In this document: positions 7,901-61,472 of the stretch, piece after piece | Layout: every line of letters starts with the position of its first letter | How positions within the stretch are numbered: position 1 is the first letter of the stretch | NCBI GenBank assembly: GCA_004321885.1 | Contig: SCQK01000013.1 | Span: 96,001-160,000, forward strand | Source: Patescibacteria group bacterium | GTDB lineage: Bacteria > Patescibacteriota > Patescibacteriia > Magasanikbacterales > GWA2-37-8 | Direction: 5' to 3' | DNA: 64,000 bases | Position numbers and translations under genes: made by a program | Notes under the pieces: model-generated | What the model was told of the DNA's origin: nothing | Database searches by the model: none | The model's input: the letters and a program-made list of their open reading frames with translations, nothing else

Positions 7901-10447
7901 ATGTTTGAAGAACTCCGCCCCATTCTTGATTTCCTCTCCCAAAATAAAGCATTCATGCTTGTACTCCCCTACCTCGGCGGAGCGTTCGCGCTTTGGATTT
8001 TTTTGAAAATCCTACGTTCGGCATTTCACGCCGGCGGACAAAACAGCCGCGCCTATCACAAAGCCGTCCTTGTCATCAAAGTGCCCAAAGAAAAAAAACA
8101 CGAGGGCCAGCAAAACACCACGGCCGCCGAAGACAACATCACTCAAATCCGCGAGCAAATCGCCATTGCCGAAACACTCTTCTCGGCCATCGCCGGCCTG
8201 CGCCGCGAAAAAAGTTTTTTCCGCTGGCTAATCGGGCGCAACGACCACCTATCGTTTGAAATCGCGGTCATTGACAGCAAAATAAATTTCTACGTGGCCG
8301 TGCCCGAAAAATTAAAAAACTTCGCCGAACAGCAAATCCACGCCCAATACCCACACGCCGAAATATTGGAAGAGCCCGATTACAACATCTTTAAGCCGCA
8401 AAGCCATATTTTGGGCGCCAGCTTGTGGTTCAAATACCGCTCGGCTTTTCCGTTCAAGACCTACAAAAAAATTGACAGCGACCCCCTGCTTGCTTTGCTG
8501 AATCCGCTAAGTAAAATTTTGGACAACGAGGGCGCGCTTATCCAATACATCGTGCGGCCGGCCTCGCCCAAATGGCGACGCCAGGGCGTGCACATGATTC
8601 GCGACATTAAAGAGGGACAGAAATTTGAATACGTGGCCCGGCGCGGAAAAATTTTACGCTCCCTGATGCGTTGGAAAAAAGCGATTTTCCCCAAACGGCC
8701 AGACCCTTCCAAACAAACCAGCGTAGCCGAACCTTATCACTTGACTCAAATGGAAGAAGAGATGGTGAAGTCAATGGAAGAAAAGCTCTCCCACGGCGGG
8801 CTGGAGATTACGATTCGCGTCGTCAGCTCGGCCGACAATAAAGAAAAGGCCCAGCTCAATTTGGAAAATATCTTGAACGCGTACAGCCAATACAATATAT
8901 ATAGGTATGGCAACTCGTTTGGCGCGGCCGTGCCCCGCCGGCCCGGCGCCCTGATACGCGATTCCATTTTCCGCAACTTTGACGACAAGCGCTATATGGT
9001 GGCGGCCACTGATGAAATGGCCAGCTTTTGGCACTTGCCCAACCCGCACACCGAGACCCCGCACATCAACTGGCTGGGGGCGCGCAAGGCTCCGCCGCCG
9101 GTCAACATGCCGAAAGAAGGCGTAATACTGGGCCGGGCTGTTTACCGAACCGAGGAAACCATTGTGCGCAGCCAGCGAACCGACCGCCGCCGTCATCTGT
9201 ACACCATCGGCAAATCCGGCGTAGGCAAATCCAACCTGATACAAAATATGGCCGTTCAAGACGTGCAAAACGGGGAAGGTATCTGCATCATAGACCCGCA
9301 CGGGGATTTCGTGGAATACGTTTTACAACACGTACCCAAAGAACGCGCCGACGACGTGATATATTTTAATCCGGCAGATATTGAGCGTCCGATCGGTTTG
9401 AACATGCTGGAAGTGCGCACCGAAGAGCAAAAGGATTTCGCCACCCAGGAAATGATTTCTATTTTTTACAAATTAGTCACGGACCCGGCCATGATCGGCC
9501 CCATGTTTGAACATAACATGCGCAATGTGATGCTGACCCTGATGTCGGACCTGGAAAACCCGGGCACCATCGCCGAAATTCCGCGCATGTTCACCGACGA
9601 TGAATTCGTGAAGGGCTGGAAGAAAAAATTGACCGACCCCATGGTCTTGGCTTTTTGGGAAAAAGAAATGGCCAAGACCTCGGACTTTCACAAATCCGAA
9701 ATGCTCGGGTATTTAATTTCCAAAGTCGGCCGCTTTGTGGAAAATGCCATGATACGCAATATCATCGGCCAGTCGCATTCGGGTTTTAATTTCCGCGAAG
9801 TGATGGACAGTAAAAAAATTCTGCTGGTGAATTTATCCAAAGGTTTAGTGGGAGAAATAAACTCAAACCTTTTAGGTCTGATTATCGTATCCAAACTGCA
9901 AATGGCCGCTCTGGAGCGCGCCTCCATGCCCGAAGAACAGCGCCATGATTTTTACTTATATATGGACGAGTTTCAAAATTTTATTACCGATTCCATCGCC
10001 ACGATTTTGTCCGAAGCGCGAAAATACCGCCTGTGCCTGGTGATGGCGCACCAATATTTGAAACAGCTGGAAGACAACAAGGGCAAGACCGCGGTGCGCG
10101 ACGCGGTGCTGGGCAACGCCGGCACCATCGCCGCTTTCCGCATGGGCGTGGAAGATGCCGAGGTGCTGGTGAAAGAATTCACGCCGGTCTTTAACGCGTA
10201 CGACTTGGTAAATATAGAACAATACACGGCCTATGTAAAATTGCTTATTGACAACACGGCCGCGAAACCGTTTAATATGATGACCTACCCCCCCACCCCG
10301 GGCAACAAGGAACTGGCCGCGGCCATCAAAGAGCTGTCGCGCCTGAAATACGGCCGGCCGCGCGAAATAGTGGAAGCCGAGATAATTGAACGGGCACAAC
10401 TGTCCGCGATAGGGGGGAAAGCCGAGTTAAGCGAAGCGTCGCTCTAG
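7901..10447 (+). CDS. membrane-anchored TraD/VirD4/HerA-like (FtsK-HerA superfamily) P-loop ATPase with a roughly 415-aa N-terminal module
   Basis: Walker A YTIGKSGVGKSNL; IIDPHGDF box; DEFQNF and EARKYRLCLVMAHQYLKQL motifs typical of coupling-protein/HerA ATPases; N-terminal TM. Confidence 0.7.
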   Translation: MFEELRPILDFLSQNKAFMLVLPYLGGAFALWIFLKILRSAFHAGGQNSRAYHKAVLVIKVPKEKKHEGQQNTTAAEDNITQIREQIAIAETLFSAIAGLRREKSFFRWLIGRNDHLSFEIAVIDSKINFYVAVPEKLKNFAEQQIHAQYPHAEILEEPDYNIFKPQSHILGASLWFKYRSAFPFKTYKKIDSDPLLALLNPLSKILDNEGALIQYIVRPASPKWRRQGVHMIRDIKEGQKFEYVARRGKILRSLMRWKKAIFPKRPDPSKQTSVAEPYHLTQMEEEMVKSMEEKLSHGGLEITIRVVSSADNKEKAQLNLENILNAYSQYNIYRYGNSFGAAVPRRPGALIRDSIFRNFDDKRYMVAATDEMASFWHLPNPHTETPHINWLGARKAPPPVNMPKEGVILGRAVYRTEETIVRSQRTDRRRHLYTIGKSGVGKSNLIQNMAVQDVQNGEGICIIDPHGDFVEYVLQHVPKERADDVIYFNPADIERPIGLNMLEVRTEEQKDFATQEMISIFYKLVTDPAMIGPMFEHNMRNVMLTLMSDLENPGTIAEIPRMFTDDEFVKGWKKKLTDPMVLAFWEKEMAKTSDFHKSEMLGYLISKVGRFVENAMIRNIIGQSHSGFNFREVMDSKKILLVNLSKGLVGEINSNLLGLIIVSKLQMAALERASMPEEQRHDFYLYMDEFQNFITDSIATILSEARKYRLCLVMAHQYLKQLEDNKGKTAVRDAVLGNAGTIAAFRMGVEDAEVLVKEFTPVFNAYDLVNIEQYTAYVKLLIDNTAAKPFNMMTYPPTPGNKELAAAIKELSRLKYGRPREIVEAEIIERAQLSAIGGKAELSEASL

Positions 10448-10477
10448 TGTCATTCCGGCCCCCGAGCCGGAATCCAG
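10448..10477. repeat. family-A hairpin repeat GTCATTCCGG-N7-CCGGAATCCAG
   Basis: other copies 11562-11588 (inside dnaX), 21342-21368, 21505-21530, 50745-50773, 55957-55991, 61391-61419 (inverted), 63974-64000 (partial). Confidence 0.85.
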
Positions 10478-10481
10478 TAAC

Positions 10482-11987
10482 ATGTCCACCCTCTACCGCC
10501 TCTACCGCCCGCAGAAGTTCGCCGACGTGACGGGCCAAGAGCACATCATCCAAACCATAACCAACGAGATATGCGCCGCTAAAACGGCGCATGCTTATCT
10601 ATTCTCGGGCCCGCGCGGCACCGGCAAGACCACCCTGGCCCGTCTGCTGGCTAAGGCCGTGAACTGCCAAAACCGCAAAGATGGGGAATCTGAACCGTGC
10701 AATGAGTGCCCATCTTGCGCGGAAATTTCCGCCAGCCGCAATATAGACGTAATGGAAATAGACGCGGCCTCGCATACGGGCGTGGAAAATGTGCGCGAAA
10801 ATATCATAGACAGCGCGCAATTTCAGCCCACCAAATCCAAATACAAAATTTTCATCATAGACGAGGTGCACATGCTTTCCACTCCGGCTTTCAACGCCCT
10901 GCTCAAAACCCTGGAAGAGCCGCCGGCGCACGTGATTTTCGTGCTGGCCACCACCGAACTGCAAAAACTGCCGGCTACCATTGTATCGCGCTGTCAACGT
11001 TTTACCTTCAAAAAAATCGGCTTTGACCAGATGATGAGCAAACTTTTGAAAATCTGCAAAGACCAGGACGTAAAGGTGGACAAAAAAGTGCTGGAGCGGG
11101 TGATAAACAAAAGCGACGGCTGTATGCGCGACGCTGAATCCCTGCTTGGTCAAATTTTAACGTTGAATCAAAAAAATATCGGGCCCGAAGACGCGGAAAT
11201 GATTTTGCCCACGTCCAATGCGCGACAGATTTTGAATTTCGTGGATGCAATTTTGAACCGCGACGTTAAAAGCGCCGTGGCTCTGATAAACGAACTGGTT
11301 TCCGACGGCGTGAATCTGGAGCAATTCGCCTATGACGCGCTGGAAATTTTGCGCCTGCTGATGATTTTGCAATACGACCCAACCAAGGAAATTTTGGATT
11401 ACAGCGACGAAGACGCCAAACTGATTAAAAAAATGACCAAACAGGCGCCGGCCGAGCAGATTATAAAATTAACGGACGCGCTGATGGCGCGCCGAGCGCA
11501 AATTAAATCCGCGCCTATTCCCCAGCTGCCCCTGGAGCTCTTCGCCGTGGAATTCTCAAACTGTCATTCCGGACTTGATACGGAATCCATCGCCGCCAAC
11601 TGTCATTCTGAGGCCCCGCTTAGCGGGGACGGAGAATCCCTCTCGCCATCTATCACGCAAAAAATCAAAACCACTCTGGACGAAATTAAAAACAAGTGGC
11701 ACGATATAACTGCCGGCCTCACCGAACAAAATCACTCACTCGGCTTTATCCTGAAAATGGGCGAACCGGCCAGAATGGAAGGAAATGAACTGTATTTGCG
11801 CGTGCCATTTTCCCTGCACAAAGAAAAAATTGAAGAGCAAAAAACCAAAAAATTGATAGAGGGCGCGATGACAGACGCCTTTGGGGAAAAAATTTGCCTG
11901 ATTTGCGAGGTGACGCAGGCGCAAAATGATGATGGCGAAATCACCCAGCTCGCGAGTGAATTTGGGGGTGAAGTTGTCTCACTCTAA
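10482..11987 (+). CDS. dnaX: DNA polymerase III subunit gamma/tau
   Basis: YRPQKFADVTGQEHI, AHAYLFSGPRGTGKTT, Zn module CNECPSC, box IFIIDEVHML; carries an in-frame repeat insertion at 11555-11613. Confidence 0.9.
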   Translation: MSTLYRLYRPQKFADVTGQEHIIQTITNEICAAKTAHAYLFSGPRGTGKTTLARLLAKAVNCQNRKDGESEPCNECPSCAEISASRNIDVMEIDAASHTGVENVRENIIDSAQFQPTKSKYKIFIIDEVHMLSTPAFNALLKTLEEPPAHVIFVLATTELQKLPATIVSRCQRFTFKKIGFDQMMSKLLKICKDQDVKVDKKVLERVINKSDGCMRDAESLLGQILTLNQKNIGPEDAEMILPTSNARQILNFVDAILNRDVKSAVALINELVSDGVNLEQFAYDALEILRLLMILQYDPTKEILDYSDEDAKLIKKMTKQAPAEQIIKLTDALMARRAQIKSAPIPQLPLELFAVEFSNCHSGLDTESIAANCHSEAPLSGDGESLSPSITQKIKTTLDEIKNKWHDITAGLTEQNHSLGFILKMGEPARMEGNELYLRVPFSLHKEKIEEQKTKKLIEGAMTDAFGEKICLICEVTQAQNDDGEITQLASEFGGEVVSL

Positions 11988-11997
11988 CCATCCCCAC

Positions 11998-12831
11998 ATG
12001 AAAATAATTATAATATCTTTATTACTAATCCTTGCTCCGGTCGCAGTTTCGTCAAAAACTCTAGTCAACCTTAACGTGCCCTTTACTCCGGAAACACCGG
12101 ACAATGTTTGGACAGCGCCCTGGAAAGACGCCTGCGAAGAGGCCAGTATCGTGATGGTCAGCCAATATTATTTAGGCAAACAAAACGCGCTCATACCAAA
12201 AGCGGCCGCCAAGGCGCTGATGCAAAAATATTTTACGATAGAAAACAAAATTTTTGGCTGGAACGCCAACACCGACGCGGCGCATACGGCTAAACTCATA
12301 AACGAGCACTCAAAAATTTTTGCCGCGGAAATAAAAAACAATCCGACGTTGGCAGAAATTAAAGCCGAGGTACAGGCCGGCCGGCCGGTAATTGCCGCCT
12401 TAAACGCTCTTGCGTTGACAAAAATCAACGACCATTTGCGCTTCCGCCGCAACGGCTCGTATTATCACATGCTGGTCATAGTGGGCTATGACGATGAAAC
12501 GAACGAGTTTATCGTGAACGATAACGGCGATTACAGCGGACTTGACCATCGCTACAGTTATGATATTATAATGGACTCTTTGCGCGATTACAGCTACAAA
12601 ACGCACAAGGCGAACGGCCCGGCGCGGGCGTTATTTACTTATCGCAAAATGCTGGCCAAAACCGCGACCAGCAACCGAATTTATTGGATAGAAAAAAATG
12701 TGAAACAATACGTCACCCACCCGGCCGTATTCAAACAACGCGGTTGGAGATGGGCCAACGTGCAGGTGGTGGAAAAAAGTGTGTTGGATGGGTTGACCAG
12801 CGGCACGCCAATCGCGCCATTGTCATCCTGA
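11998..12831 (+). CDS. secreted papain-like (peptidase C39-like) domain protein
   Basis: signal peptide MKIIIISLLLILAPVAVSS; catalytic-Cys context WKDACEEASIVMVSQYY and His context HMLVIVGYDDETNEF. Confidence 0.55.
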   Translation: MKIIIISLLLILAPVAVSSKTLVNLNVPFTPETPDNVWTAPWKDACEEASIVMVSQYYLGKQNALIPKAAAKALMQKYFTIENKIFGWNANTDAAHTAKLINEHSKIFAAEIKNNPTLAEIKAEVQAGRPVIAALNALALTKINDHLRFRRNGSYYHMLVIVGYDDETNEFIVNDNGDYSGLDHRYSYDIIMDSLRDYSYKTHKANGPARALFTYRKMLAKTATSNRIYWIEKNVKQYVTHPAVFKQRGWRWANVQVVEKSVLDGLTSGTPIAPLSS

Positions 12832-12860
12832 ATTTATTTCAGGATCTCCAACCCGTAACC

Positions 12861-12933: not shown

Positions 12934-13644
12934 ATGAAGATCGTCATTGTAATTCCCACATACAACGAAAGGAAGAACATCTCCAAACTAACCGAGAAAA
13001 TTTTTGCTTTGCGAATTGACGGGCTGGAAATGATCGTAGTGGACGACGGCTCGCCCGACGGAACCGGCGACAAGGTAAAAAAATTGGGCGAACGATTTCC
13101 GGTGACCCTGCTGGCGCGCGAAAAAAAACGCGGACTCGGTTCGGCTTACCTCGCCGGATTCAAGAAAGCCCTGGAAATGGGGGCTGATTTTATTTTTGAA
13201 ATGGACGCGGATTTGTCGCACGACCCCGACGACGTGCCAAGATTACTGGAGCCGTGCCTGGACGGCGCCGATTTGGCCATCGGCTCGCGCCGGGTGGCCG
13301 GCGGAAAGATTATCGGATGGGGCTGGGCGCGCAAATTCATGAGCGCCGGAGCCATGCGGCTGTCGCGCCTGATACTTCAATTAAAAAACAAAGACGTTAC
13401 CTCCGGCTTCAGATGTTGGCGCCGCGAAGCGCTTTTAAGAATTGACTTGGACAAAATCAAAAGCAACGGCTACGCTTTTCAGGAAGAAATACTCTGGCGC
13501 GCCCAGCAGGCGGGCCTGAAAATTGCCGAGGTACCGGTAATTTTTGTTGACCGCGAAGAAGGCAAATCCAAACTGGGCTGGAGAGAGGTATTGGAATTTT
13601 TTAAAGTAATGCTGTCATTGCGAGCGAAGCGAAGCAATCCCTAA
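12934..13644 (+). CDS. GT2 family dolichyl/polyprenyl-phosphate mannose (or glucose) synthase-like glycosyltransferase
   Basis: VVIPTYNE, VVDDGSPDGT, DAD motif, Dpm1-like fold; the C-terminal 11 aa are read from a family-B repeat. Confidence 0.8.
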   Translation: MKIVIVIPTYNERKNISKLTEKIFALRIDGLEMIVVDDGSPDGTGDKVKKLGERFPVTLLAREKKRGLGSAYLAGFKKALEMGADFIFEMDADLSHDPDDVPRLLEPCLDGADLAIGSRRVAGGKIIGWGWARKFMSAGAMRLSRLILQLKNKDVTSGFRCWRREALLRIDLDKIKSNGYAFQEEILWRAQQAGLKIAEVPVIFVDREEGKSKLGWREVLEFFKVMLSLRAKRSNP

Positions 13645-13693
13645 CACAAATGATTGGGATTGCTTCGGCGCTATGCGCCGCCTCGCAATGACA
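13613..13693. repeat. family-B nested palindrome GTCATTGCGAGCG..AAGCAATCCC..GGGATTGCTTCG..CTCGCAATGAC
   Basis: other copies 13859-13940, 19249-19298 (half), 21854-21937, 63753-63846. Confidence 0.85.
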
Positions 13694-16061: not shown

Positions 16062-16697
16062 ATGCGAACTTCCCTTCCATTTACCCATCGCCAGCTCTCC
16101 CCTTCGCCGCCTTCGCGGCATGAGAAAGGGGAGAGGGGGACGACTGCAATATTGCCAGCTATATTGCTCATCGCGTTTGGCATTGCGGCGAGATTTTTGC
16201 CCCATCCGGCGAACTTTACTCCCATCGGCGCCATTGCTATTTTTGGCGGACTGTATCTGCCCAAAAAACTTTCTGTTTGGCTGCCTCTCTCGGCCATGCT
16301 TATCAGCGATATTTTTATCGGCTTTTATTCATTGCCGATTATGGCCAGCGTGTACGTCGGCTTTATGTTCGCCAATCTGCTATCCTTGACAGCGCGGGGC
16401 AAACTCGCATATACAAAAACCGCCTTTGGGCGGTTTGGGACTATTGCCGGCGCCACGGCGCTAAGTTCAGCCATTTTTTACCTCTTGACAAACGCGGCGG
16501 TTTGGGCATTCGGCTCTATGTATCCGCACAATTTCACCGGCCTTTTGGAATCATACTACCTGGCTCTCCCCTTCTTCCGAAACAGCCTGGCGGGCGACGT
16601 TTTCTTCACTTTCGTTTTAGTAGGCGGGATGGAGTTGCTAAAACATACGTTAAGGGATTCCTCCGCTCTCCGCCGGCTGGCGAATCGATCGGAATGA
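16062..16697 (+). CDS. polytopic membrane protein (ECF-transporter S-component-like); the N-terminal 28 aa are read through a family-D repeat
   Basis: 5-6 predicted TM helices; possible alternative TTG start near 16150. Confidence 0.5.
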   Translation: MRTSLPFTHRQLSPSPPSRHEKGERGTTAILPAILLIAFGIAARFLPHPANFTPIGAIAIFGGLYLPKKLSVWLPLSAMLISDIFIGFYSLPIMASVYVGFMFANLLSLTARGKLAYTKTAFGRFGTIAGATALSSAIFYLLTNAAVWAFGSMYPHNFTGLLESYYLALPFFRNSLAGDVFFTFVLVGGMELLKHTLRDSSALRRLANRSE

Positions 16698-16699
16698 CA

Positions 16700-18118
16700 T
16701 TATCCATACGGTAACTCCTCTGGCTCTGGCGGTTCTTCTTTTCTCTCTTCTTCCACAGCAGGCCCGACAGGCAAATCCAAATCAATGGGCAAGCCAAACG
16801 GCGGCTCCGAGCGCTTGGTGGCGGATTTCTGCAACAACGGGGTCTTCACACTCGGCAACGGGAAGTGCCACAAAGTGGCCAGCTCTTCTATGTTCAAAAT
16901 ATAGGGCGTGCCGTACACTTTAATCTTGCGCTTCTTAAACGCGTTCACGAATTTGCGTTTTTTCCAAACCACTATAAGCTTCTTAAACGCGTAGTAGGCC
17001 TTGGTCACCACGTAGGGCGTGAGCTGGTTGCGGTTGACCATGCTAAATTGCTTTAGCGAGCCGACATAGCCGTCCAAGCACCGCGAGGGATTGAAAACTT
17101 CCTTGCGCGCCACATACAGGGCGCGTATTTTTGTCTTAAAGCCGACCTTGGCGATTTTGTCTTCCACGGCCTGCACCGTATTTTTCAGGCCCGGCGGCAA
17201 TTCGCTCACTTTGCCGGCCACGACCTCTTCCCTTTTGACTTCTTTTTCCTTTGGTTCAAAGTTCCAATTCCACACGTCCATGAGCATCTCAAACAGCTTG
17301 GCCGGCAAACCCAAAATGCCGCCCAGAATGCCGGCCTTGGCCGGGGCTTTTTTTTGCGCGATGATTTCCTTTACCAGACTGATGCCGGCGGCCTGCCAGG
17401 TATCGGCCACTGGCTCAATCACGATTTGCGTGAAAAAATTCTCGCCCGCCCCGAGTCGCGTGAAATTTTCCAGCACCGCGGCCATAGGGTCGTTGAACAT
17501 GGCGTCTTTGGTCACGCTGTGCTCAAACTCGGGATAGGTGCGGATGGGGTAGGCATTGTGGCCGGCTAAAGTGAATTCCACGCCGAAGACGTCTTCCGCG
17601 TCATTGGGAAATTTTGTCGGAATGACGCCGACATAATCCTCTATTTCCGTGATTTCGGCCGTCGGGTATTGGGCGTAAATGGCCGCTTCCACCACGTCGC
17701 GAAATTCTTGCTCGGTATAAATTAAAAATTGAATATAGCCGGCCATGGAAATAATCTCAAAGCTGAACCACTTTTGTTTTTTGCCCAGCCAAAATTTTTC
17801 GCCGACATTGGGCCCGACCAGCGCGCCCGACAGGTGCGAAAAAAGCTGTTCCACGGCCTTGGGGCTTTGAATCACCTCTTGCGGAATCTCAATGGCCAGC
17901 ACGAGCCATTTCCATTTGCTTGTGTAAAGCCCCTGCCGATACCACAGCCACAGCTCCTGCCCCATGTAGAAAAAAATTAAGAGCAAAATAGCCCAGCCGA
18001 TGATGCCAAACAGGGCCAAAATTATTTTTCCGCTGGACCACGTAAGCAATTGGTCCCAAAACGAAAAATTTAGATTGAATGAGACTCCGCCAAAAGGCGA
18101 CTCCATGCCAGTGGGCAT
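16700..18118 (-). CDS. ATPase-less paralogue of the N-terminal module of the 848-aa ATPase (7901-10447)
   Basis: shared blocks: LVLAIEIPQE/VLVIKVPKE, EQLFSHLSGAL/ETLFSAIAGL, FSFEI...AAIYAQYPTAEITE/SFEI...QQIHAQYPHAEILE, ELATLWHFPLP/EMASFWHLPNP; N-terminal TM; no P-loop. Confidence 0.65.
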   Translation of the reverse strand: MPTGMESPFGGVSFNLNFSFWDQLLTWSSGKIILALFGIIGWAILLLIFFYMGQELWLWYRQGLYTSKWKWLVLAIEIPQEVIQSPKAVEQLFSHLSGALVGPNVGEKFWLGKKQKWFSFEIISMAGYIQFLIYTEQEFRDVVEAAIYAQYPTAEITEIEDYVGVIPTKFPNDAEDVFGVEFTLAGHNAYPIRTYPEFEHSVTKDAMFNDPMAAVLENFTRLGAGENFFTQIVIEPVADTWQAAGISLVKEIIAQKKAPAKAGILGGILGLPAKLFEMLMDVWNWNFEPKEKEVKREEVVAGKVSELPPGLKNTVQAVEDKIAKVGFKTKIRALYVARKEVFNPSRCLDGYVGSLKQFSMVNRNQLTPYVVTKAYYAFKKLIVVWKKRKFVNAFKKRKIKVYGTPYILNIEELATLWHFPLPSVKTPLLQKSATKRSEPPFGLPIDLDLPVGPAVEEERKEEPPEPEELPYG

Positions 18119-19230: not shown

Positions 19231-21333
19231 TTATGTATGGGATTGCTTCCCGCCAGAGGCGGGCAGGCGCTCTTCGCTCGCAATGACATTTTTTTTATGC
19301 CCCAAAAACATCCAATTGCCATACTCATTGAACCAGCGGAAAACAATGCGGATATTGATGCGGGTAACGGTAATGGCCGTAAACATGGAGACCAACGTGC
19401 CGATGGCCAACGTGACGGCAAAGCCCTGCACAAACCCGGTGCCAAACCATATAAGGAATCCGCAACTGATAAGGGTGGTGATATTGCTGTCGCGAATGGA
19501 CGGCCAGGCGCGCGCGAACGACTCCTCGGCCGCCGACAGCAAACTGCGGCCATTGCGTAATTCTTCTTTCATGCGCTCAAACACCAGCACATTGGCGTCT
19601 ACGGCCATACCGATAGACAAAATAAAGCCGGCAATGCCCGACAAGGTTAAAGTTACTCCGATAATCTTAAAGATGGCCAAACTTAAAAGGGCGTAGACGA
19701 GCAGAGAAACATTGGCCAACAAGCCGGGAAAGCGATAATAGCCAATCATGAAAAGCAAAACTAAAATCAAACCAACAATGCCGGCGAAAAAACTTTTACG
19801 CAGATACTCGGAACCCAAAGTGGCGTCCACTTTCTGCTGGCTGATGAGGTCTACGGCCACGGGCAAAGCGCCGGCGTTGAGGCGCTGGGACAAAAGCCGC
19901 GCTTCGCCGAGCGTGAAACTGCCCGAGATGACGGCCGAGCCGCTGGTGATGGCTTCGTTCACGCGCGGAATGCTAATGGGCTCACCGTCCAAAAATATGG
20001 CCACGTTCTTGCCCACATTGCGCGTGGTGATATCGCCGAACAATTTTGTGCCTTCTTCGTTGAATTGCAGATTGACCTGCACTTGTCCGGACTGATTATC
20101 CTGGGTTACCTCGGCGCGCTTGAGCTGCTTGCCCGACAAGCCCGAGCTTTTCCATTCCTCGGCCGGCGGCACGACATCGGAAGCCTGTTTAGTCTTCACG
20201 TACACGCGGGCCACCTCATATTCCCTGGACGGCTTTTCATCTTTTTTGTAAATAATGTGAAAACCGAATTTTGTTTCCACCGCATTGGACACAGCGCCCT
20301 TGGGCATCGCGCCCGCCGCCTCTTCAAACTCCGGCACCATTTGGCCCTTCTTAAACCAGCCCAGCTCTTCGCCGCGCACTTCCAATTTTTTATCCGGAGA
20401 ATATTGCTGTACCAACTGGGCAAAATTGGCGGGCGACGCCTGGGCTTTTATTTCACCGGCTCTTTGGCGGGCCTGGTCTTTGTTCAATTTGCTTTCACAC
20501 CCTTCGGCGCCGGCATAACAAACCAACAAGTGCGACGCGTTTATCATTTTTTCGCCGTCGCGGCCGGAGAGCCGTTTTACCACGTTCAAGCCGTCAAAAC
20601 TTTTCACCAGGGTTTTGCCCGCCTGGCCGTCTTTGGCTTTCTCGGCCCAAGCAAAAATTTCCGGATAAATTTCTTTGGTAATAAATCCCAGATTGCCGCC
20701 CTTGTCTTTGCTGGCCTGGTCTTCGGAATATTGGGCCGCGATTTTGCCGAAATCGGCCCCGGGTTTTAGGGCCGCGGTTAGAGCTGTTTTGGCTTTTTTA
20801 TCGGCCGCGCTGTTAAAAACGTCCAGGTCTTTTTTTTCTTGGGGTGTCAAATCGCGGGCCGGGTCGTGATTTTCTTCCTTAAATTCCAGTATCGGAGTTT
20901 CGCCAATCATTTTGATGGCCTGATTGACATCGGTAACGCCGGGCAATTCCACAATCACGCGATAATCGCCGCCGACCTTGGTGGTTTGCACCAATGGCTC
21001 GGCCACGCCCAGGCCCCCGCGCACGCGCCGCTCTATCACGTCGCGCACGCCTTCCACGGCGTCGCCGCGGTCGCCTTCGGGAATGGTTTCTGTTTTGGCC
21101 TGATAAACCAAATGCGCGCCGCCCTGCAAATCCAGGCCCAGATTAAAGCCCTTATCCGGCAAGCGGGGCAAACCGATGTTGGCCGCGTTGTTGAGCCAGT
21201 CTATGCCGCGGTTGGCGAACGCCGGCAAAACAATAAGCAGGGTGGCAATGGCCAAAGCGACCACGCCGGCCGCGTGCCATTTTAATTTTTTCGCCGACGA
21301 AACCTTGTTGGAAATTTTTACTGCCATAAACAC
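19231..21333 (-). CDS. secD: protein translocase subunit SecD with inserted parvulin-type PPIase domain(s)
   Basis: SecD motifs LGLDLQGG and GGLGVAEPLVQ plus the TM core; inserted segment ASHLLV...GEELGWFKKGQMVPEFEEAA...FGFHIIYK matches PpiC/parvulin; a second partial parvulin-like segment GADFGKIAAQYSED...GGNLGF. Confidence 0.85.
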   Translation of the reverse strand: MFMAVKISNKVSSAKKLKWHAAGVVALAIATLLIVLPAFANRGIDWLNNAANIGLPRLPDKGFNLGLDLQGGAHLVYQAKTETIPEGDRGDAVEGVRDVIERRVRGGLGVAEPLVQTTKVGGDYRVIVELPGVTDVNQAIKMIGETPILEFKEENHDPARDLTPQEKKDLDVFNSAADKKAKTALTAALKPGADFGKIAAQYSEDQASKDKGGNLGFITKEIYPEIFAWAEKAKDGQAGKTLVKSFDGLNVVKRLSGRDGEKMINASHLLVCYAGAEGCESKLNKDQARQRAGEIKAQASPANFAQLVQQYSPDKKLEVRGEELGWFKKGQMVPEFEEAAGAMPKGAVSNAVETKFGFHIIYKKDEKPSREYEVARVYVKTKQASDVVPPAEEWKSSGLSGKQLKRAEVTQDNQSGQVQVNLQFNEEGTKLFGDITTRNVGKNVAIFLDGEPISIPRVNEAITSGSAVISGSFTLGEARLLSQRLNAGALPVAVDLISQQKVDATLGSEYLRKSFFAGIVGLILVLLFMIGYYRFPGLLANVSLLVYALLSLAIFKIIGVTLTLSGIAGFILSIGMAVDANVLVFERMKEELRNGRSLLSAAEESFARAWPSIRDSNITTLISCGFLIWFGTGFVQGFAVTLAIGTLVSMFTAITVTRINIRIVFRWFNEYGNWMFLGHKKNVIASEERLPASGGKQSHT

Positions 21334-21377
21334 AATTATTATGTCATTCCGGGCTTGACCCGGAATCTATTTCCGTG

Positions 21378-22733: not shown

Positions 22734-22760
22734 ACTACACAATTCGTTGTGGCAACAATC

Positions 22761-22846
22761 GTCATCCTGAACTTGTTTCAGGATCCCCACTGTCCAATTC
22801 GCCGACTCGCTCGATCGGAGATGCCGAAACAAGTTCGGCATGACAG
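22761..22846. repeat. family-C composite hairpins GTCATCCTGAACTTGTTTCAGGAT ... ATGCCGAAACAAGTTCGGCATGAC
   Basis: related copies 23161-23203 (ATGCTGAAATAAATTCAGCAT) and 46141-46157 (CCTGAAACAAGTTCAGG). Confidence 0.7.
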
Positions 22847-22865
22847 TGACGCGGCTGGAAACTTA

Positions 22866-23159
22866 TCACTCCCATTCGTCGCTCAAGTCTTTCAAAGTGG
22901 GATTAAGTCCTTTTACTAAATTTATTTTCCACTGACGATGCCAATTTTTGATTTGTTTCTCTCTGTTAATTGCGTCACGTGGATCCAAAAAAACTTCGTA
23001 ATAAACTAACTTTTTCAGATTATACTGTTTTGTAAATCCCTCATTGATTCCATTTTTATGTTCTTCAAGCCGACGTTCTAGATTGTTCGTTATACCTACA
23101 TATAAAACCGTGTTGATGATGTTTGTTAAAATATACACATAAAATGTTTTCCCCTCCAT
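22866..23159 (-). CDS. GIY-YIG nuclease superfamily protein (UPF0213-like)
   Basis: YVYIL...LYVGITNNLERRLEEH matches the GIY-YIG motif. Confidence 0.85.
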   Translation of the reverse strand: MEGKTFYVYILTNIINTVLYVGITNNLERRLEEHKNGINEGFTKQYNLKKLVYYEVFLDPRDAINREKQIKNWHRQWKINLVKGLNPTLKDLSDEWE

Positions 23160-23201
23160 ACGATTTGCGATTGGAGATGCTGAAATAAATTCAGCATGAC
23201 A

Positions 23202-30328: not shown

Positions 30329-30988
30329 CTAATTTTTTTTATTTTCCAAAATCCTCATTAATTCATCTCTCATTTTTTTATTATGGTAATAAACTGTTAA
30401 AACTCCATGTCTACTTTTTTCGCGATAAGTACCTTTTCTAACAGACATTGTTATCGTGCTTTTGTAAAATTGATTTTTATTTACCTTTATTTGCCCCTTC
30501 CAAAACCTTAGCGCTTCAGTCACTGAAATGTCATTGAATAACTGAAGGCTAAACTTAAGGTCTTTTCTTCTAATGGAAAAAAATTTAACTAAAAAGTCAA
30601 TAAATTTCTTGACCAATCTTGGGTCAGTATTTCCCAACCTAACTGTGCATTTATCCGCTTTTGTTCCCTCCCCCCAGTATAACCCAAGTCCAAAACCATA
30701 TAAAATTCCCTCTTTTAATGTATGTGGATACTTTATGACAAATGGATCACCGTTTGGGTTATTTTTTTTGTAAATAGCTTCACTGATAGATCTACACGTA
30801 ATCGAATATTTTTCCATCCAATAACGTATTTTATTTACTGAACATTCGAAAATATTGGCAATTTCTTGTGCCGACTTTCCCTGATTTTGATATAATTTTT
30901 GCAAAACACCTTTGCTTATCATATCACAAATTATATCATAGCCGACTGAATAGTACAAGTAACCCCAAGTAGATAATATGGTTGTCAA
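30329..30988 (-). CDS. HTH-containing protein with a degenerate LAGLIDADG-like motif; putative free-standing homing endonuclease between two intron-containing tRNA genes (TTG start)
   Basis: N-terminal HTH (SAQEIANIFECSVNKIRYWMEKY); ILYGFGLGLYWGEGTKADKCTVRLGNTD resembles the single-motif LAGLIDADG core; the ORF opens inside the tRNA-Tyr 3' exon and ends 6 nt before tRNA-Thr. Confidence 0.4.
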   Translation of the reverse strand: MTTILSTWGYLYYSVGYDIICDMISKGVLQKLYQNQGKSAQEIANIFECSVNKIRYWMEKYSITCRSISEAIYKKNNPNGDPFVIKYPHTLKEGILYGFGLGLYWGEGTKADKCTVRLGNTDPRLVKKFIDFLVKFFSIRRKDLKFSLQLFNDISVTEALRFWKGQIKVNKNQFYKSTITMSVRKGTYREKSRHGVLTVYYHNKKMRDELMRILENKKN

Positions 30989-30997
30989 TGAACCTTG

Positions 30998-31291
30998 TGG
31001 GTGGAGTAGGATTCGAACCTACGAAGGCAGAGCCAGCAGATTTCATTTATCCAAAAGTTTCCTTCTAGCATGGACTATATCTTTATCCTATCCGCCAATC
31101 TGGCCGATAGGATACTCTGGTATCTAGTCTCTACGGCGCCCCCGACTTTGCCGGGGTTCCCACGGTATTAGCATGCCCGCCAGTTGGCGGATTTAGCTTT
31201 CACCGTTATCCCAGAGAGTTCATCCTAAAGTTACCTTTAGGAGCTGCGTTTCAACACAGTCTGCTCCAGTTGACCACTTTGGTATCCACCC
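30998..31291 (-). tRNA. tRNA-Tyr (anticodon GTA) interrupted between nt 35/36 by a 212-nt group I intron (exons 31256-31291 and 30998-31043)
   Basis: joined exons GGGTGGATACCAAAGTGGTCAACTGGAGCAGACTGT|AAATCTGCTGGCTCTGCCTTCGTAGGTTCGAATCCTACTCCACCCA: type-II tRNA with a long variable arm and an anticodon loop CUGUAAA identical to E. coli tRNA-Tyr. Confidence 0.8.
31044..31255 (-). ncRNA. group I intron (IC3-like, Azoarcus/cyanobacterial tRNA-intron type) in the tRNA-Tyr anticodon loop
   Basis: contains GUAGAGACUAGA, identical to the P7/P3 core of the Azoarcus tRNA-Ile intron; P3-like GCUAAAUCCGCC; 5' exon ends in U and the intron ends in G. Confidence 0.7.
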
Positions 31292-31310
31292 ATCTTCTTA
31301 AATTTTCTTG

Positions 31311-31382
31311 AGCCGCCTCAGGGATTCGGACCCTGGACCTACGGTTTACAAAACCGTTGCTCTACCGCTGAGCTAAGGCGGC
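31311..31382 (-). tRNA. tRNA-Thr (anticodon TGT)
   Basis: GCCGCCT-TA-GCTC-AGCGGTA-GAGC-A-ACGGT-TTTGTAA-ACCGT-AGGTC-CAGGG-TCCGAAT-CCCTG-AGGCGGC-T. Confidence 0.85.
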
Positions 31383-50602: not shown

Positions 50603-50679
50603 ACTATGAATATAATCTCATTCGCTCAGAACTGAATTAATAAATTAATTCAGTTCGCTCGCTCATTTCGATTATAAAC

Positions 50680-50704
50680 AAAAAATCTGTGTTTCCACAG
50701 ACTA
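50680..50704 (-). promoter_or_regulatory. candidate attenuator hairpin plus U-run inside the long rplJ leader
   Basis: minus-strand TCTGTGG-AAAC-ACAGA-TTTTTT about 80 nt upstream of the rplJ ATG; the leader is about 235 nt. Confidence 0.35.
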
Positions 50705-50837
50705 ATCCCGCCAAAGGCGGGCAAGAGCGCAAATCGACCTATACTGTCATTCCGGCTTCCGAGCCGGAATCCAGTTCTTTTTTGCACCTCGGCAGGTAAT
50801 TAAGCCCTTTCGGACACCTGCTGTCTATGGTGACAAT

Positions 50838-50866
50838 AATATACAGGAAGCATAAAAAAATGTCAA
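50838..50866 (-). promoter_or_regulatory. sigma70-like promoter TTGACA-17-TATATT for the rplJL operon
   Basis: consensus -35, 17-nt spacer, near-consensus -10. Confidence 0.4.
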
Positions 50867-61286: not shown

Positions 61287-61472
61287 AGTGTTTTTTTGCA
61301 ACAGTAATATTTCTACAATTTTTCAAACATTGTGGAAAATATTAAGCCGGACAGAGATTCCTCGGCTTCGCCTCGGAATAACAATCTACTGGATTCCGGC
61401 TCGTGGGCCGGAATGACAGCTGGGCTCCACAGCCCCGACTGAGTCGGGGACTATGGAGCCAGCAATTGACAA

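Follow-up and report, generated by a model that had tools for sequence, protein, structure and literature searches.

We found that dnaX, the gene for the gamma/tau subunit of DNA polymerase III, carries two copies of a multi-copy hairpin repeat in frame in a Patescibacteria group bacterium, at the point where the clamp-loader part of the protein joins its C-terminal domain. The stretch analysed (hereafter the window) comprises 64,000 nt of contig SCQK01000013.1 (GCA_004321885.1; contig positions 96,001–160,000, forward strand). Our favoured reading, to which we assign a probability of about 0.8, is that hairpins resembling REP/REPIN elements were inserted into, and tolerated by, the disordered DnaX linker, and that this occurred recurrently across lineages. 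Coordinates of the features are collected in Table 1.

As the initial annotation had stated, dnaX is one uninterrupted open reading frame (ORF) of 501 residues, whose product includes ..EFSNCHSGLDTESIAANCHSEAPLSGDGES... Pfam matches comprised PF13177 (DNA_pol3_delta2, E = 1e-43), PF00004 (AAA, E = 2e-15) and PF12169 (DNA_pol3_gamma3, domain III; residues 238–356), so that both the AAA+ ATPase module and clamp-loader domain III expected of a DnaX protein were present. An identical 501-residue protein in the NCBI database (P0001) is annotated as DNA polymerase III subunit gamma/tau [Patescibacteria group bacterium], and a homologue search with the window DnaX returned 8000 sequences, the best of which were annotated as gamma/tau. 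Residues 406–484, in the C-terminal domain, gave a sub-threshold match to PF11490 (PolC-type DNA_pol3_a_NII; E = 4e-4, 20.6 bits against a cutoff of 26.3).

The region 11555–11640 reads GAATTCTCA AAC TGTCATTCCGGACTTGATACGGAATCC ATCGCCGCCAAC TGTCATTCTGAGGCCCCGCTTAGCGGGGACGGAGAATCC CTC and is translated as ..EFSN-CHSGLDTES-IAAN-CHSEAPLSGDGES-L.., the repeat-encoded residues standing in the protein context ..FSNCHSGLDTESIAANCHSEAPLSGDGESLSPSITQK... The repeat-derived feature spans 78 nt (27 + 12 + 39, every piece divisible by three) and encodes residues 361–386; it replaces the span 11555–11613 originally proposed. The 30-mer AACTGTCATTCCGGACTTGATACGGAATCC singled out in the initial annotation was located at 11559–11588 and matched nothing in any shuffled sequence. 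The second copy had been considered partial, which proved incorrect: TGTCATTCTGAGGCCCCGCTTAGCGGGGACGGAGAATCC is complete, with its own 5' box, 3' box and hairpin. The 5' box, AACTGTCATTC, recurs as a direct repeat at 39-nt spacing across copies 1 and 2; copy 2 also shares the 3' box GAATCC[A/C]TC with copy 1 and forms its own stem (−15.7 kcal/mol). Copy 1 folded less stably (−6.3 kcal/mol) than intergenic copies of the same subtype (about −12.5 kcal/mol), having lost upper-stem pairing relative to its nearest sibling at 21342 (−12.2 kcal/mol). Only the individual hairpins were stable, as the 121-nt dnaX region taken as a whole was no stabler than its shuffles (z = +0.56). The frame used across the repeats (TGT CAT TCN, Cys-His-Ser) is stop-free, whereas the −1 frame meets a stop within copy 1. 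A zinc site formed by the two Cys-His pairs was considered as a selected feature and rejected, since in relatives the repeat is translated in different frames, giving VIP.. or ..GMT without any Cys or His.

Both motifs lie in frame between domain III, which ends at residue 356, and the C-terminal domain, whose helix begins at residue 399, and both belong to a genuine multi-copy family of hairpin repeats, in agreement with the initial annotation. The insert starts four residues beyond the Pfam end of domain III. An AlphaFold2 model built from a 30-sequence alignment predicted confident helices at residues 349–359 and 399–416, and between them a coil at residues 363–392 with a predicted local distance difference test (pLDDT) score below 50. 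Residues 361–386, encoded by the repeats, would thus constitute the linker itself. The window protein also lacks ~16 residues (..TIKDTIS..THK..; around residues 387–398, columns ~440–465 of alignment A1) that most relatives keep ahead of the C-terminal domain, making its linker short despite the two repeat copies.

Around 23 copies of the repeat family occur in the window. All share a common architecture, in which TGTCAT leads into a stem from the AT onwards whose upper part and loop vary, with ATC(C/T)N on the 3' side, and every copy folded into a 4-nt overhang followed by a stem from AUUCC/GGAAU, giving hairpins of 25–47 nt. The frequency of these hairpins greatly exceeded expectation: CTGTCATTC was counted five times (0.21 expected) and a strict hairpin pattern found 12 copies (0.47 in shuffles). 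A less biased test looked merely at what comes after each TGTCAT. Among the 42 such sites in the window, 20 preceded a stem of 5 bp or longer and 10 (24%) one of 6 bp or longer that started from the AT, compared to 2.2% of control NNNNAT words reaching the latter length. Loosening the search pattern by allowing [CG] in the stem yielded evident chance matches and was dropped.

Compensatory change in the stem was apparent from alignment A2, comprising 34 distinct copies from the window and relatives over 29 columns. In its 8-bp stem, 90% of cells were paired, against 69% in shuffles and 32–49% when partner columns were slid by one to three positions. Because the five basal pairs had been imposed by the search pattern, independent evidence comes from the three upper ones alone; of these, pair 12–19 was formed in 32/34 copies by five pair types (AU, CG, GC, GU, UA). 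The 5' flank was invariant (TGTC, then AT). A covariance model built from A2 recovered 14 window copies at E ≤ 0.015, of which dnaX copy 1 was the second best. Rfam gave no relevant match at gathering score over the window, nor any at E ≤ 10 over 10400–11700. Another subtype (TGTCATTGCGAG..inner GC hairpin..GAAGCAATCCC; ATTGC...GCAAT) emerged from the TGTCAT test as well, occurring as REPIN-like inverted doublets ~80 nt apart at convergent gene ends. Among viral contigs in IMG/VR, the ATCCTGAAC-type 26-mer occurred on 12 and the ATTCCGG type on one, numbers too sparse to interpret. Literature searches with the repeat sequence strings returned nothing but unrelated primer matches; searches on candidate phyla radiation (CPR) bacteria and palindromic repeats, and on REP in in-frame or disordered contexts, found nothing relevant, and in the library searched no paper tied REPIN or RAYT to Patescibacteria. 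The hairpin family, tied to gene ends, appears to be undescribed.

The usual location of the repeat is the 3' end of a gene. In 12/23 window copies, the stop codon of a co-oriented gene lay within −70 to +60 nt of the 5' end of the repeat, compared to 6% at random, and three copies directly abut the stop, with TGTCAT following the TAG of a TraG-like gene and the TAA of both SecA and ORF 16700–18118. Sequence inspection and a terminator scan found no intrinsic-terminator T-tract after the repeat copies. In this the family resembles REP/REPIN elements that are attached to the 3' ends of genes. Five genes terminate within repeats (12821–12846, 13613–13641, 13656–13693, 16654–16699 and 19240–19288), which supply the last 3–18 residues and/or the stop. 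The resulting ends, each followed by the stop, are ..PLSS in the C39-like peptidase, ..LSLRAKRSNP in GT2, ..LSLRGGA in Dus, ..NRSE in DUF6580 (repeat in reverse orientation) and ..NVIASEERLPASGGKQSHT in SecD. In several relatives, the spacer between the TraG/DUF8128-like gene and dnaX holds inverted ATGCTGAAC/ATCCTGAAC doublets ending 7–8 nt before the dnaX start codon, and no obvious Shine-Dalgarno sequence remains in the repeat-bearing spacer before dnaX. Upstream of rplJ/rplL, an Rfam L10_leader match (53.6 bits; 50671–50848, minus strand) encloses a repeat copy on the opposite strand (50745–50771, plus strand), which may contribute to, or inflate, that match.

To place the dnaX copies in context, matches were surveyed in 253 kb (~90% ORF-covered) made up of the window and 12 loci from the clade. 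Of the 60 covariance-model matches, 34 were intergenic, six lay across ORF ends, seven were less than 150 nt from the start of a maximal ORF (mostly upstream of the real start) and 13 were in dnaX linkers. None of the 60 was deep inside any ORF other than dnaX.

Table 1 Features of the dnaX region, of other repeat copies in the window and of dnaX linkers in relatives. Positions are those of the window unless a locus of a relative (L number) is named.
Feature	Position	Strand	Details
dnaX (DNA polymerase III gamma/tau)	10482..11987	+	ORF list, Pfam, identical NCBI protein
Repeat copy 1 (TGTCATTCCGGACTTGATACGGAATCC)	11562..11588	+	27 nt; residues 361–369, CHSGLDTES; ATTCCGG subtype, upper stem weakened; 37.6 bits, E = 7.6e-7
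Spacer ATCGCCGCCAAC (IAAN) between copies	11589..11600	+	12 nt; sequence
Repeat copy 2 (TGTCATTCTGAGGCCCCGCTTAGCGGGGACGGAGAATCC)	11601..11639	+	39 nt; residues 374–386, CHSEAPLSGDGES; composite subtype with inner GC-rich hairpin; 19.6 bits, E = 0.015
Intergenic ATTCCGG-subtype copy	10448..10474	+	0 nt past stop of upstream TraG/TrwB-like gene, 7 nt before dnaX ATG; 37.4 bits
ATCCTGAA-subtype copy	12821..12846	+	Provides last codons and TGA stop of peptidase_C39-like gene downstream of dnaX; strict pattern, covariance model
Intergenic copy nearest in sequence to dnaX copy 1 (TGTCATTCCGGGCTTGACCCGGAATC)	21342..21367	+	Top covariance-model match, 39.7 bits
Intergenic direct doublet, ATTCCGG type then ATTCCGAGG type	61356..61418	-	Subtype order as in the dnaX pair; folding, covariance model
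ATTGC-subtype inverted doublets	13613+/13693-, 21854+/21937-, 63753+/63846-	+/-	TGTCAT-stem test
Hairpin copies in TraG/DUF8128-like–dnaX spacer	L017 2927-2993; L021 9928-9994; window 10448-10474		
L018 dnaX linker			One + and one - copy of TGTCATCCTGAACTTGTTTCAGGATC, identical to L018 intergenic copies
L020, L021, L022 dnaX linkers			+ copy in frame 3 (..VIPT..EES..), then - copy (..LGMT/..LKMT)
L023 dnaX linker			Single copy
L105 dnaX linker	L105 2980		One clean copy (covariance-model match) plus second unit read VIPT and CHS-type remnant
L106 dnaX linker			One clean copy, then degenerate reverse copy read ..LGMT
L107 dnaX linker	L107 2808+/2850-	+/-	Inverted doublet, near-identical to intergenic doublets 4209+/4250- and 1604+/1654-
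L019 (P0047) dnaX linker			Degenerate frame-1 copy only

Comparison with relatives revealed extensive turnover at this site. DnaX proteins at 53–64% identity (Magasanikbacteria-like) aligned well except between PQLPLELFxVEF and T..IKxKW, where a hypervariable linker ranges from ~30 to 110 residues. At 501 residues the window protein is among the shortest of the clade (500–586), which points to turnover of this linker and not to simple net insertion. The alignment showed the gap at the insert site that the initial annotation had anticipated, in the close relatives P0002, P0006 and P0008, and the P0006 locus (L104) held no repeat copy anywhere in 21.5 kb. Relatives sharing the same residues without repeat-like DNA were not encountered, the CHS-type relatives P0047, P0013 and P0093 all carrying repeat-like nucleotides. 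Clean copies were present in 9/13 dnaX genes checked as DNA (the window and 12 relatives). The eight relatives concerned (L018, L020, L021, L022, L023, L105, L106 and L107) carry them in frame 1 or 3 and in plus or minus orientation, and P0092 holds two ATTGC-type copies. Every dnaX copy had the subtype that its own genome harbours, with ATTCCGG confined to the window among the loci compared, and in L018, L106 and L107 the dnaX copies were identical or near-identical to intergenic copies at the same locus.

The protein sequences carry the same signal. Repeat-derived tripeptides occurred in the linkers of 33/100 homologues and were ~20- to 100-fold commoner there than in the rest of the protein: VIP/VIL was found 25 times in 6,187 linker residues versus twice in 47,399 other residues, and CHS/CHP six times in linkers versus none outside. 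Fitch parsimony on a neighbour-joining tree of linker-masked proteins required at least 18 state changes, a rough figure that includes losses and noise. At least five colonisations were clearly separate (window/P0047; P0013; the large 'TC..VIPT' clade; P0078/P0089/P0093; P0048/P0056). No clean linker copy was found in 80 more distant dnaX loci from a metagenome scan (mostly 32–54% identity), which served as negative controls. Many other CPR dnaX genes (L030–L042, L047) are short forms of 366–383 residues that end a few residues past ..LPLEL..EF, without the linker and C-terminal domain.

Taken together, these data are consistent with the following scenario. A REP/REPIN-like repeat, abundant in this Patescibacteria lineage, normally situated at the 3' ends of co-oriented genes and varying in its stem by compensatory changes, would have joined dnaX as two copies of 27 and 39 nt, separated by 12 nt, at the junction of clamp-loader domain III and the C-terminal domain. 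Arrival may have been by repeated insertion or by gene conversion from resident copies, with selection acting as a filter through which only frame-keeping, stop-free events would survive. The copies would persist because their lengths keep the frame, the frame used is stop-free and the 26 encoded residues lie in a disordered, length-tolerant tether. In related lineages, the linker would have been colonised repeatedly by the subtype resident in each genome, in which case such elements would largely make up the DnaX linker of this clade and drive its turnover. We infer that insertion or gene conversion, and not descent, brought the copies in, and that a mobilising enzyme was involved; their effect on DnaX function would be near neutral.

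Several observations weigh against this scenario. We identified neither a target-site duplication nor defined element termini, nor a transposase, so that insertion is deduced from the distribution of copies and was not itself seen. In the 'VIPT..EES' subclade the first copy occupies the same linker position in many genomes, and the repeat ends are conserved amid a hypervariable linker, which, in place of neutrality, could reflect concerted evolution or selection acting on the hairpin. The low pLDDT of the linker is partly due to this region being poorly aligned, and the gene calls behind the survey are crude maximal ORFs. Finally, ascertainment inflates the count of 13 copies in dnaX, as several relatives were chosen for DNA analysis by their protein signature; unlike this count, the absence of copies deep inside other ORFs is unaffected by the choice of loci.

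Pfam scans of ~62 ORFs in the window, covering 64 kb of the genome, gave no Y1/RAYT/IS200 (PF01797-type) match. A GIY-YIG gene of 97 residues (PF01541, E = 1e-19; 22866–23159, minus strand) lies among three hairpins that belong to the same superfamily (22760–23201). Of these, TGTCATGCTGAA..TTCAGCATC comes right after the SecA stop and 13 nt before the GIY-YIG ATG, whilst TGTCATGCCGAA..TTCGGCATC lies 20 nt past the GIY-YIG stop and is followed by an inverted ATCCTGAAAC copy. This nuclease is a possible candidate for the mobilising enzyme. However, the association is anecdotal, since only two other GIY-YIG homologues occurred in ~0.8 Mb of loci (L047 and L031) and neither had flanking hairpins. 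In L047, the GIY-YIG gene directly follows a short dnaX and lies between duplicated tRNA-like 5' segments.

A quite different explanation is that the hairpins are a selected mRNA signal at the domain III/IV boundary, acting through pausing, processing or premature termination to yield a gamma-like short product or a tuned level of tau. Given that repeats of this family otherwise mark co-oriented genes at their 3' ends, one lying just after domain III could form an internal pseudo gene end, by way of stalled ribosomes, mRNA processing or a transcript 3' end. In E. coli, dnaX undergoes a programmed −1 frameshift at the slippery sequence A AAA AAG, with a downstream stem-loop, to give gamma. The window hairpins resemble that signal in being RNA hairpins within dnaX right after domain III, exactly the E. 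coli gamma position. The linker being the sole deep intragenic repeat site in 253 kb is also in keeping with a selected signal, as are the co-orientation of the first copy with dnaX at all loci examined and the conservation of the repeat ends described above. The resemblance to E. coli is positional only, though, as a slippery heptamer is missing and relatives do not keep the arrangement. A scan of dnaX for heptamers and homopolymer runs, with three-frame translation, found nothing near the hairpins, the only in-frame X XXY YYZ heptamers being at nt 10607 and 11171 (residues 42 and 230), and a frameshift signal was therefore rejected. An intrinsic terminator was likewise rejected: the consensus scan was empty at the insert, the 3' flanks are ATCCATCGCC and ATCCCTCTCG, and no T-tract or terminator-like site was present at 11555–11650 on the plus strand. 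With neither a slippery site nor a terminator, a gamma-producing signal is not supported. Lineages differ in how many copies they carry and in the frame, orientation and subtype of these, and close relatives are free of the repeat; moreover, the copy 1 stem is weak and the surrounding region is no stabler than its shuffles. We therefore regard a selected signal as quite unlikely. If true, it would represent a third route to gamma/tau beside frameshifting/transcriptional slippage and proteolysis, and would explain both the sole deep intragenic site and its recurrence across lineages.

The linker could alternatively be a former intergenic spacer, where a short gamma-like dnaX with a repeat at its stop codon was fused to a downstream gene by stop loss and the repeats were read through. 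The habit of the repeats of lying flush with the stop codons of co-oriented genes would fit such a fusion, as would the short CPR forms of dnaX that end just past ..LPLEL..EF. We give this slightly less credence, because all long homologues examined have the same conserved C-terminal domain, the repeat-free P0002, P0006 and P0008 included, and because positions, frames and subtypes differ among lineages. In addition, the (near-)identity of the L018, L106 and L107 copies to intergenic copies indicates that these dnaX copies are young. Artefact or coincidence, in the form of an assembly chimera at the repeat or a chance likeness of ordinary linker sequence, would be conceivable given that metagenome-assembled genomes can mis-join at repeats and that the units are short (27–39 nt). 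This is extremely improbable, as dnaX is colinear on both flanks with its frame intact, the two copies have covariance-model E values of 7.6e-7 and 0.015 and a 30-mer found in no shuffle, and the same phenomenon recurs in eight independent assemblies from different projects.

The in-frame insertion of palindromic repeats is a known kind of event. REP sequences carry a conserved GT[AG]G tetranucleotide 5' of the palindrome, which is the RAYT cleavage/recognition motif. The window family resembles REP in consisting of short imperfect palindromes with a conserved 5' flank, many copies, a mainly extragenic location and compensatory stem changes, but differs in that its flank is TGTC(AT), no RAYT gene occurs in the window, and copies abut the stop codon of the gene upstream and share that gene's orientation. 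Inverted doublets, such as the ATTGC-subtype pairs in Table 1 and the L107 pair 4209+/4250-, resemble REPIN, whereas the dnaX pair in the window is a direct doublet. REP sequences and REPIN doublets are mobilised by RAYT transposases (PMC3116915, PMC3337134).

As summarised in PMC10969869, Rickettsia palindromic elements (RPEs; Ogata et al. 2000) are a palindromic family found in frame within protein-coding genes, housekeeping genes included; the summary describes them as ~100–150 bp long, encoding a conserved peptide and occurring in dozens of unrelated genes. The dnaX copies share with RPEs the addition of a peptide segment by an in-frame palindromic repeat without destruction of the protein. 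They differ from RPEs in size, peptide and gene range, being simple hairpins of 27–39 nt, mostly at gene 3' ends, in a Patescibacteria host, and the dnaX linker is the sole gene interior entered in 253 kb, yet was entered repeatedly in different lineages. Intragenic MITEs (miniature transposable elements with inverted repeats; ERIC, BOX and cyanobacterial families) also form in-frame fusions (PMC10969869). Like these, the repeats here are small, non-autonomous and supply coding sequence, including the C-termini and stops of at least five window genes; unlike MITEs, they are much shorter and have no recognisable terminal inverted repeats, target-site duplications or cognate transposase. That an essential gene tolerates a palindromic element, which the initial annotation had considered notable, therefore has precedents in RPEs (PMC10969869), and it is the recurrence at one site across lineages that is notable. 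What is added here is the hairpin family itself, together with its recurrent colonisation, in a Patescibacteria clade, of the DnaX linker and of no other gene interior surveyed.

One further feature of the window is an Rfam group I intron at 31051–31263 (61.7 bits), within 30995–31295 on the minus strand and next to tRNA-Thr (31310–31382). Its flanks, GGGTGGATACCAAAGTGGTCAACTGGAGCAGACTGT ... AAATCTGCTGGCTCTGCCTTCGTAGGTTCGAATCCTACTCCACCCA, resemble the two halves of a tRNA with a long variable arm, split in the anticodon loop, and the interrupted tRNA is probably tRNA-Tyr(GUA). ARAGORN made no call for the intron-split tRNA, and a 219-residue ORF downstream of the intron (30329–30988) had no Pfam match.

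In summary, a bacterium with a reduced genome carries selfish or structural hairpin DNA, in frame, within one of its essential replisome genes. The supply of stop codons and C-terminal residues by repeats matters for gene calling and for C-terminal and protein-family alignments in CPR genomes. Should the dnaX hairpins be functional, they would constitute a new way of regulating gamma/tau. On the favoured reading, the flexible tether of the clamp-loader tau subunit would be a recurrent sink for hairpin elements across a Patescibacteria clade, offering a concrete case of disordered linkers growing and turning over via repeat insertion.

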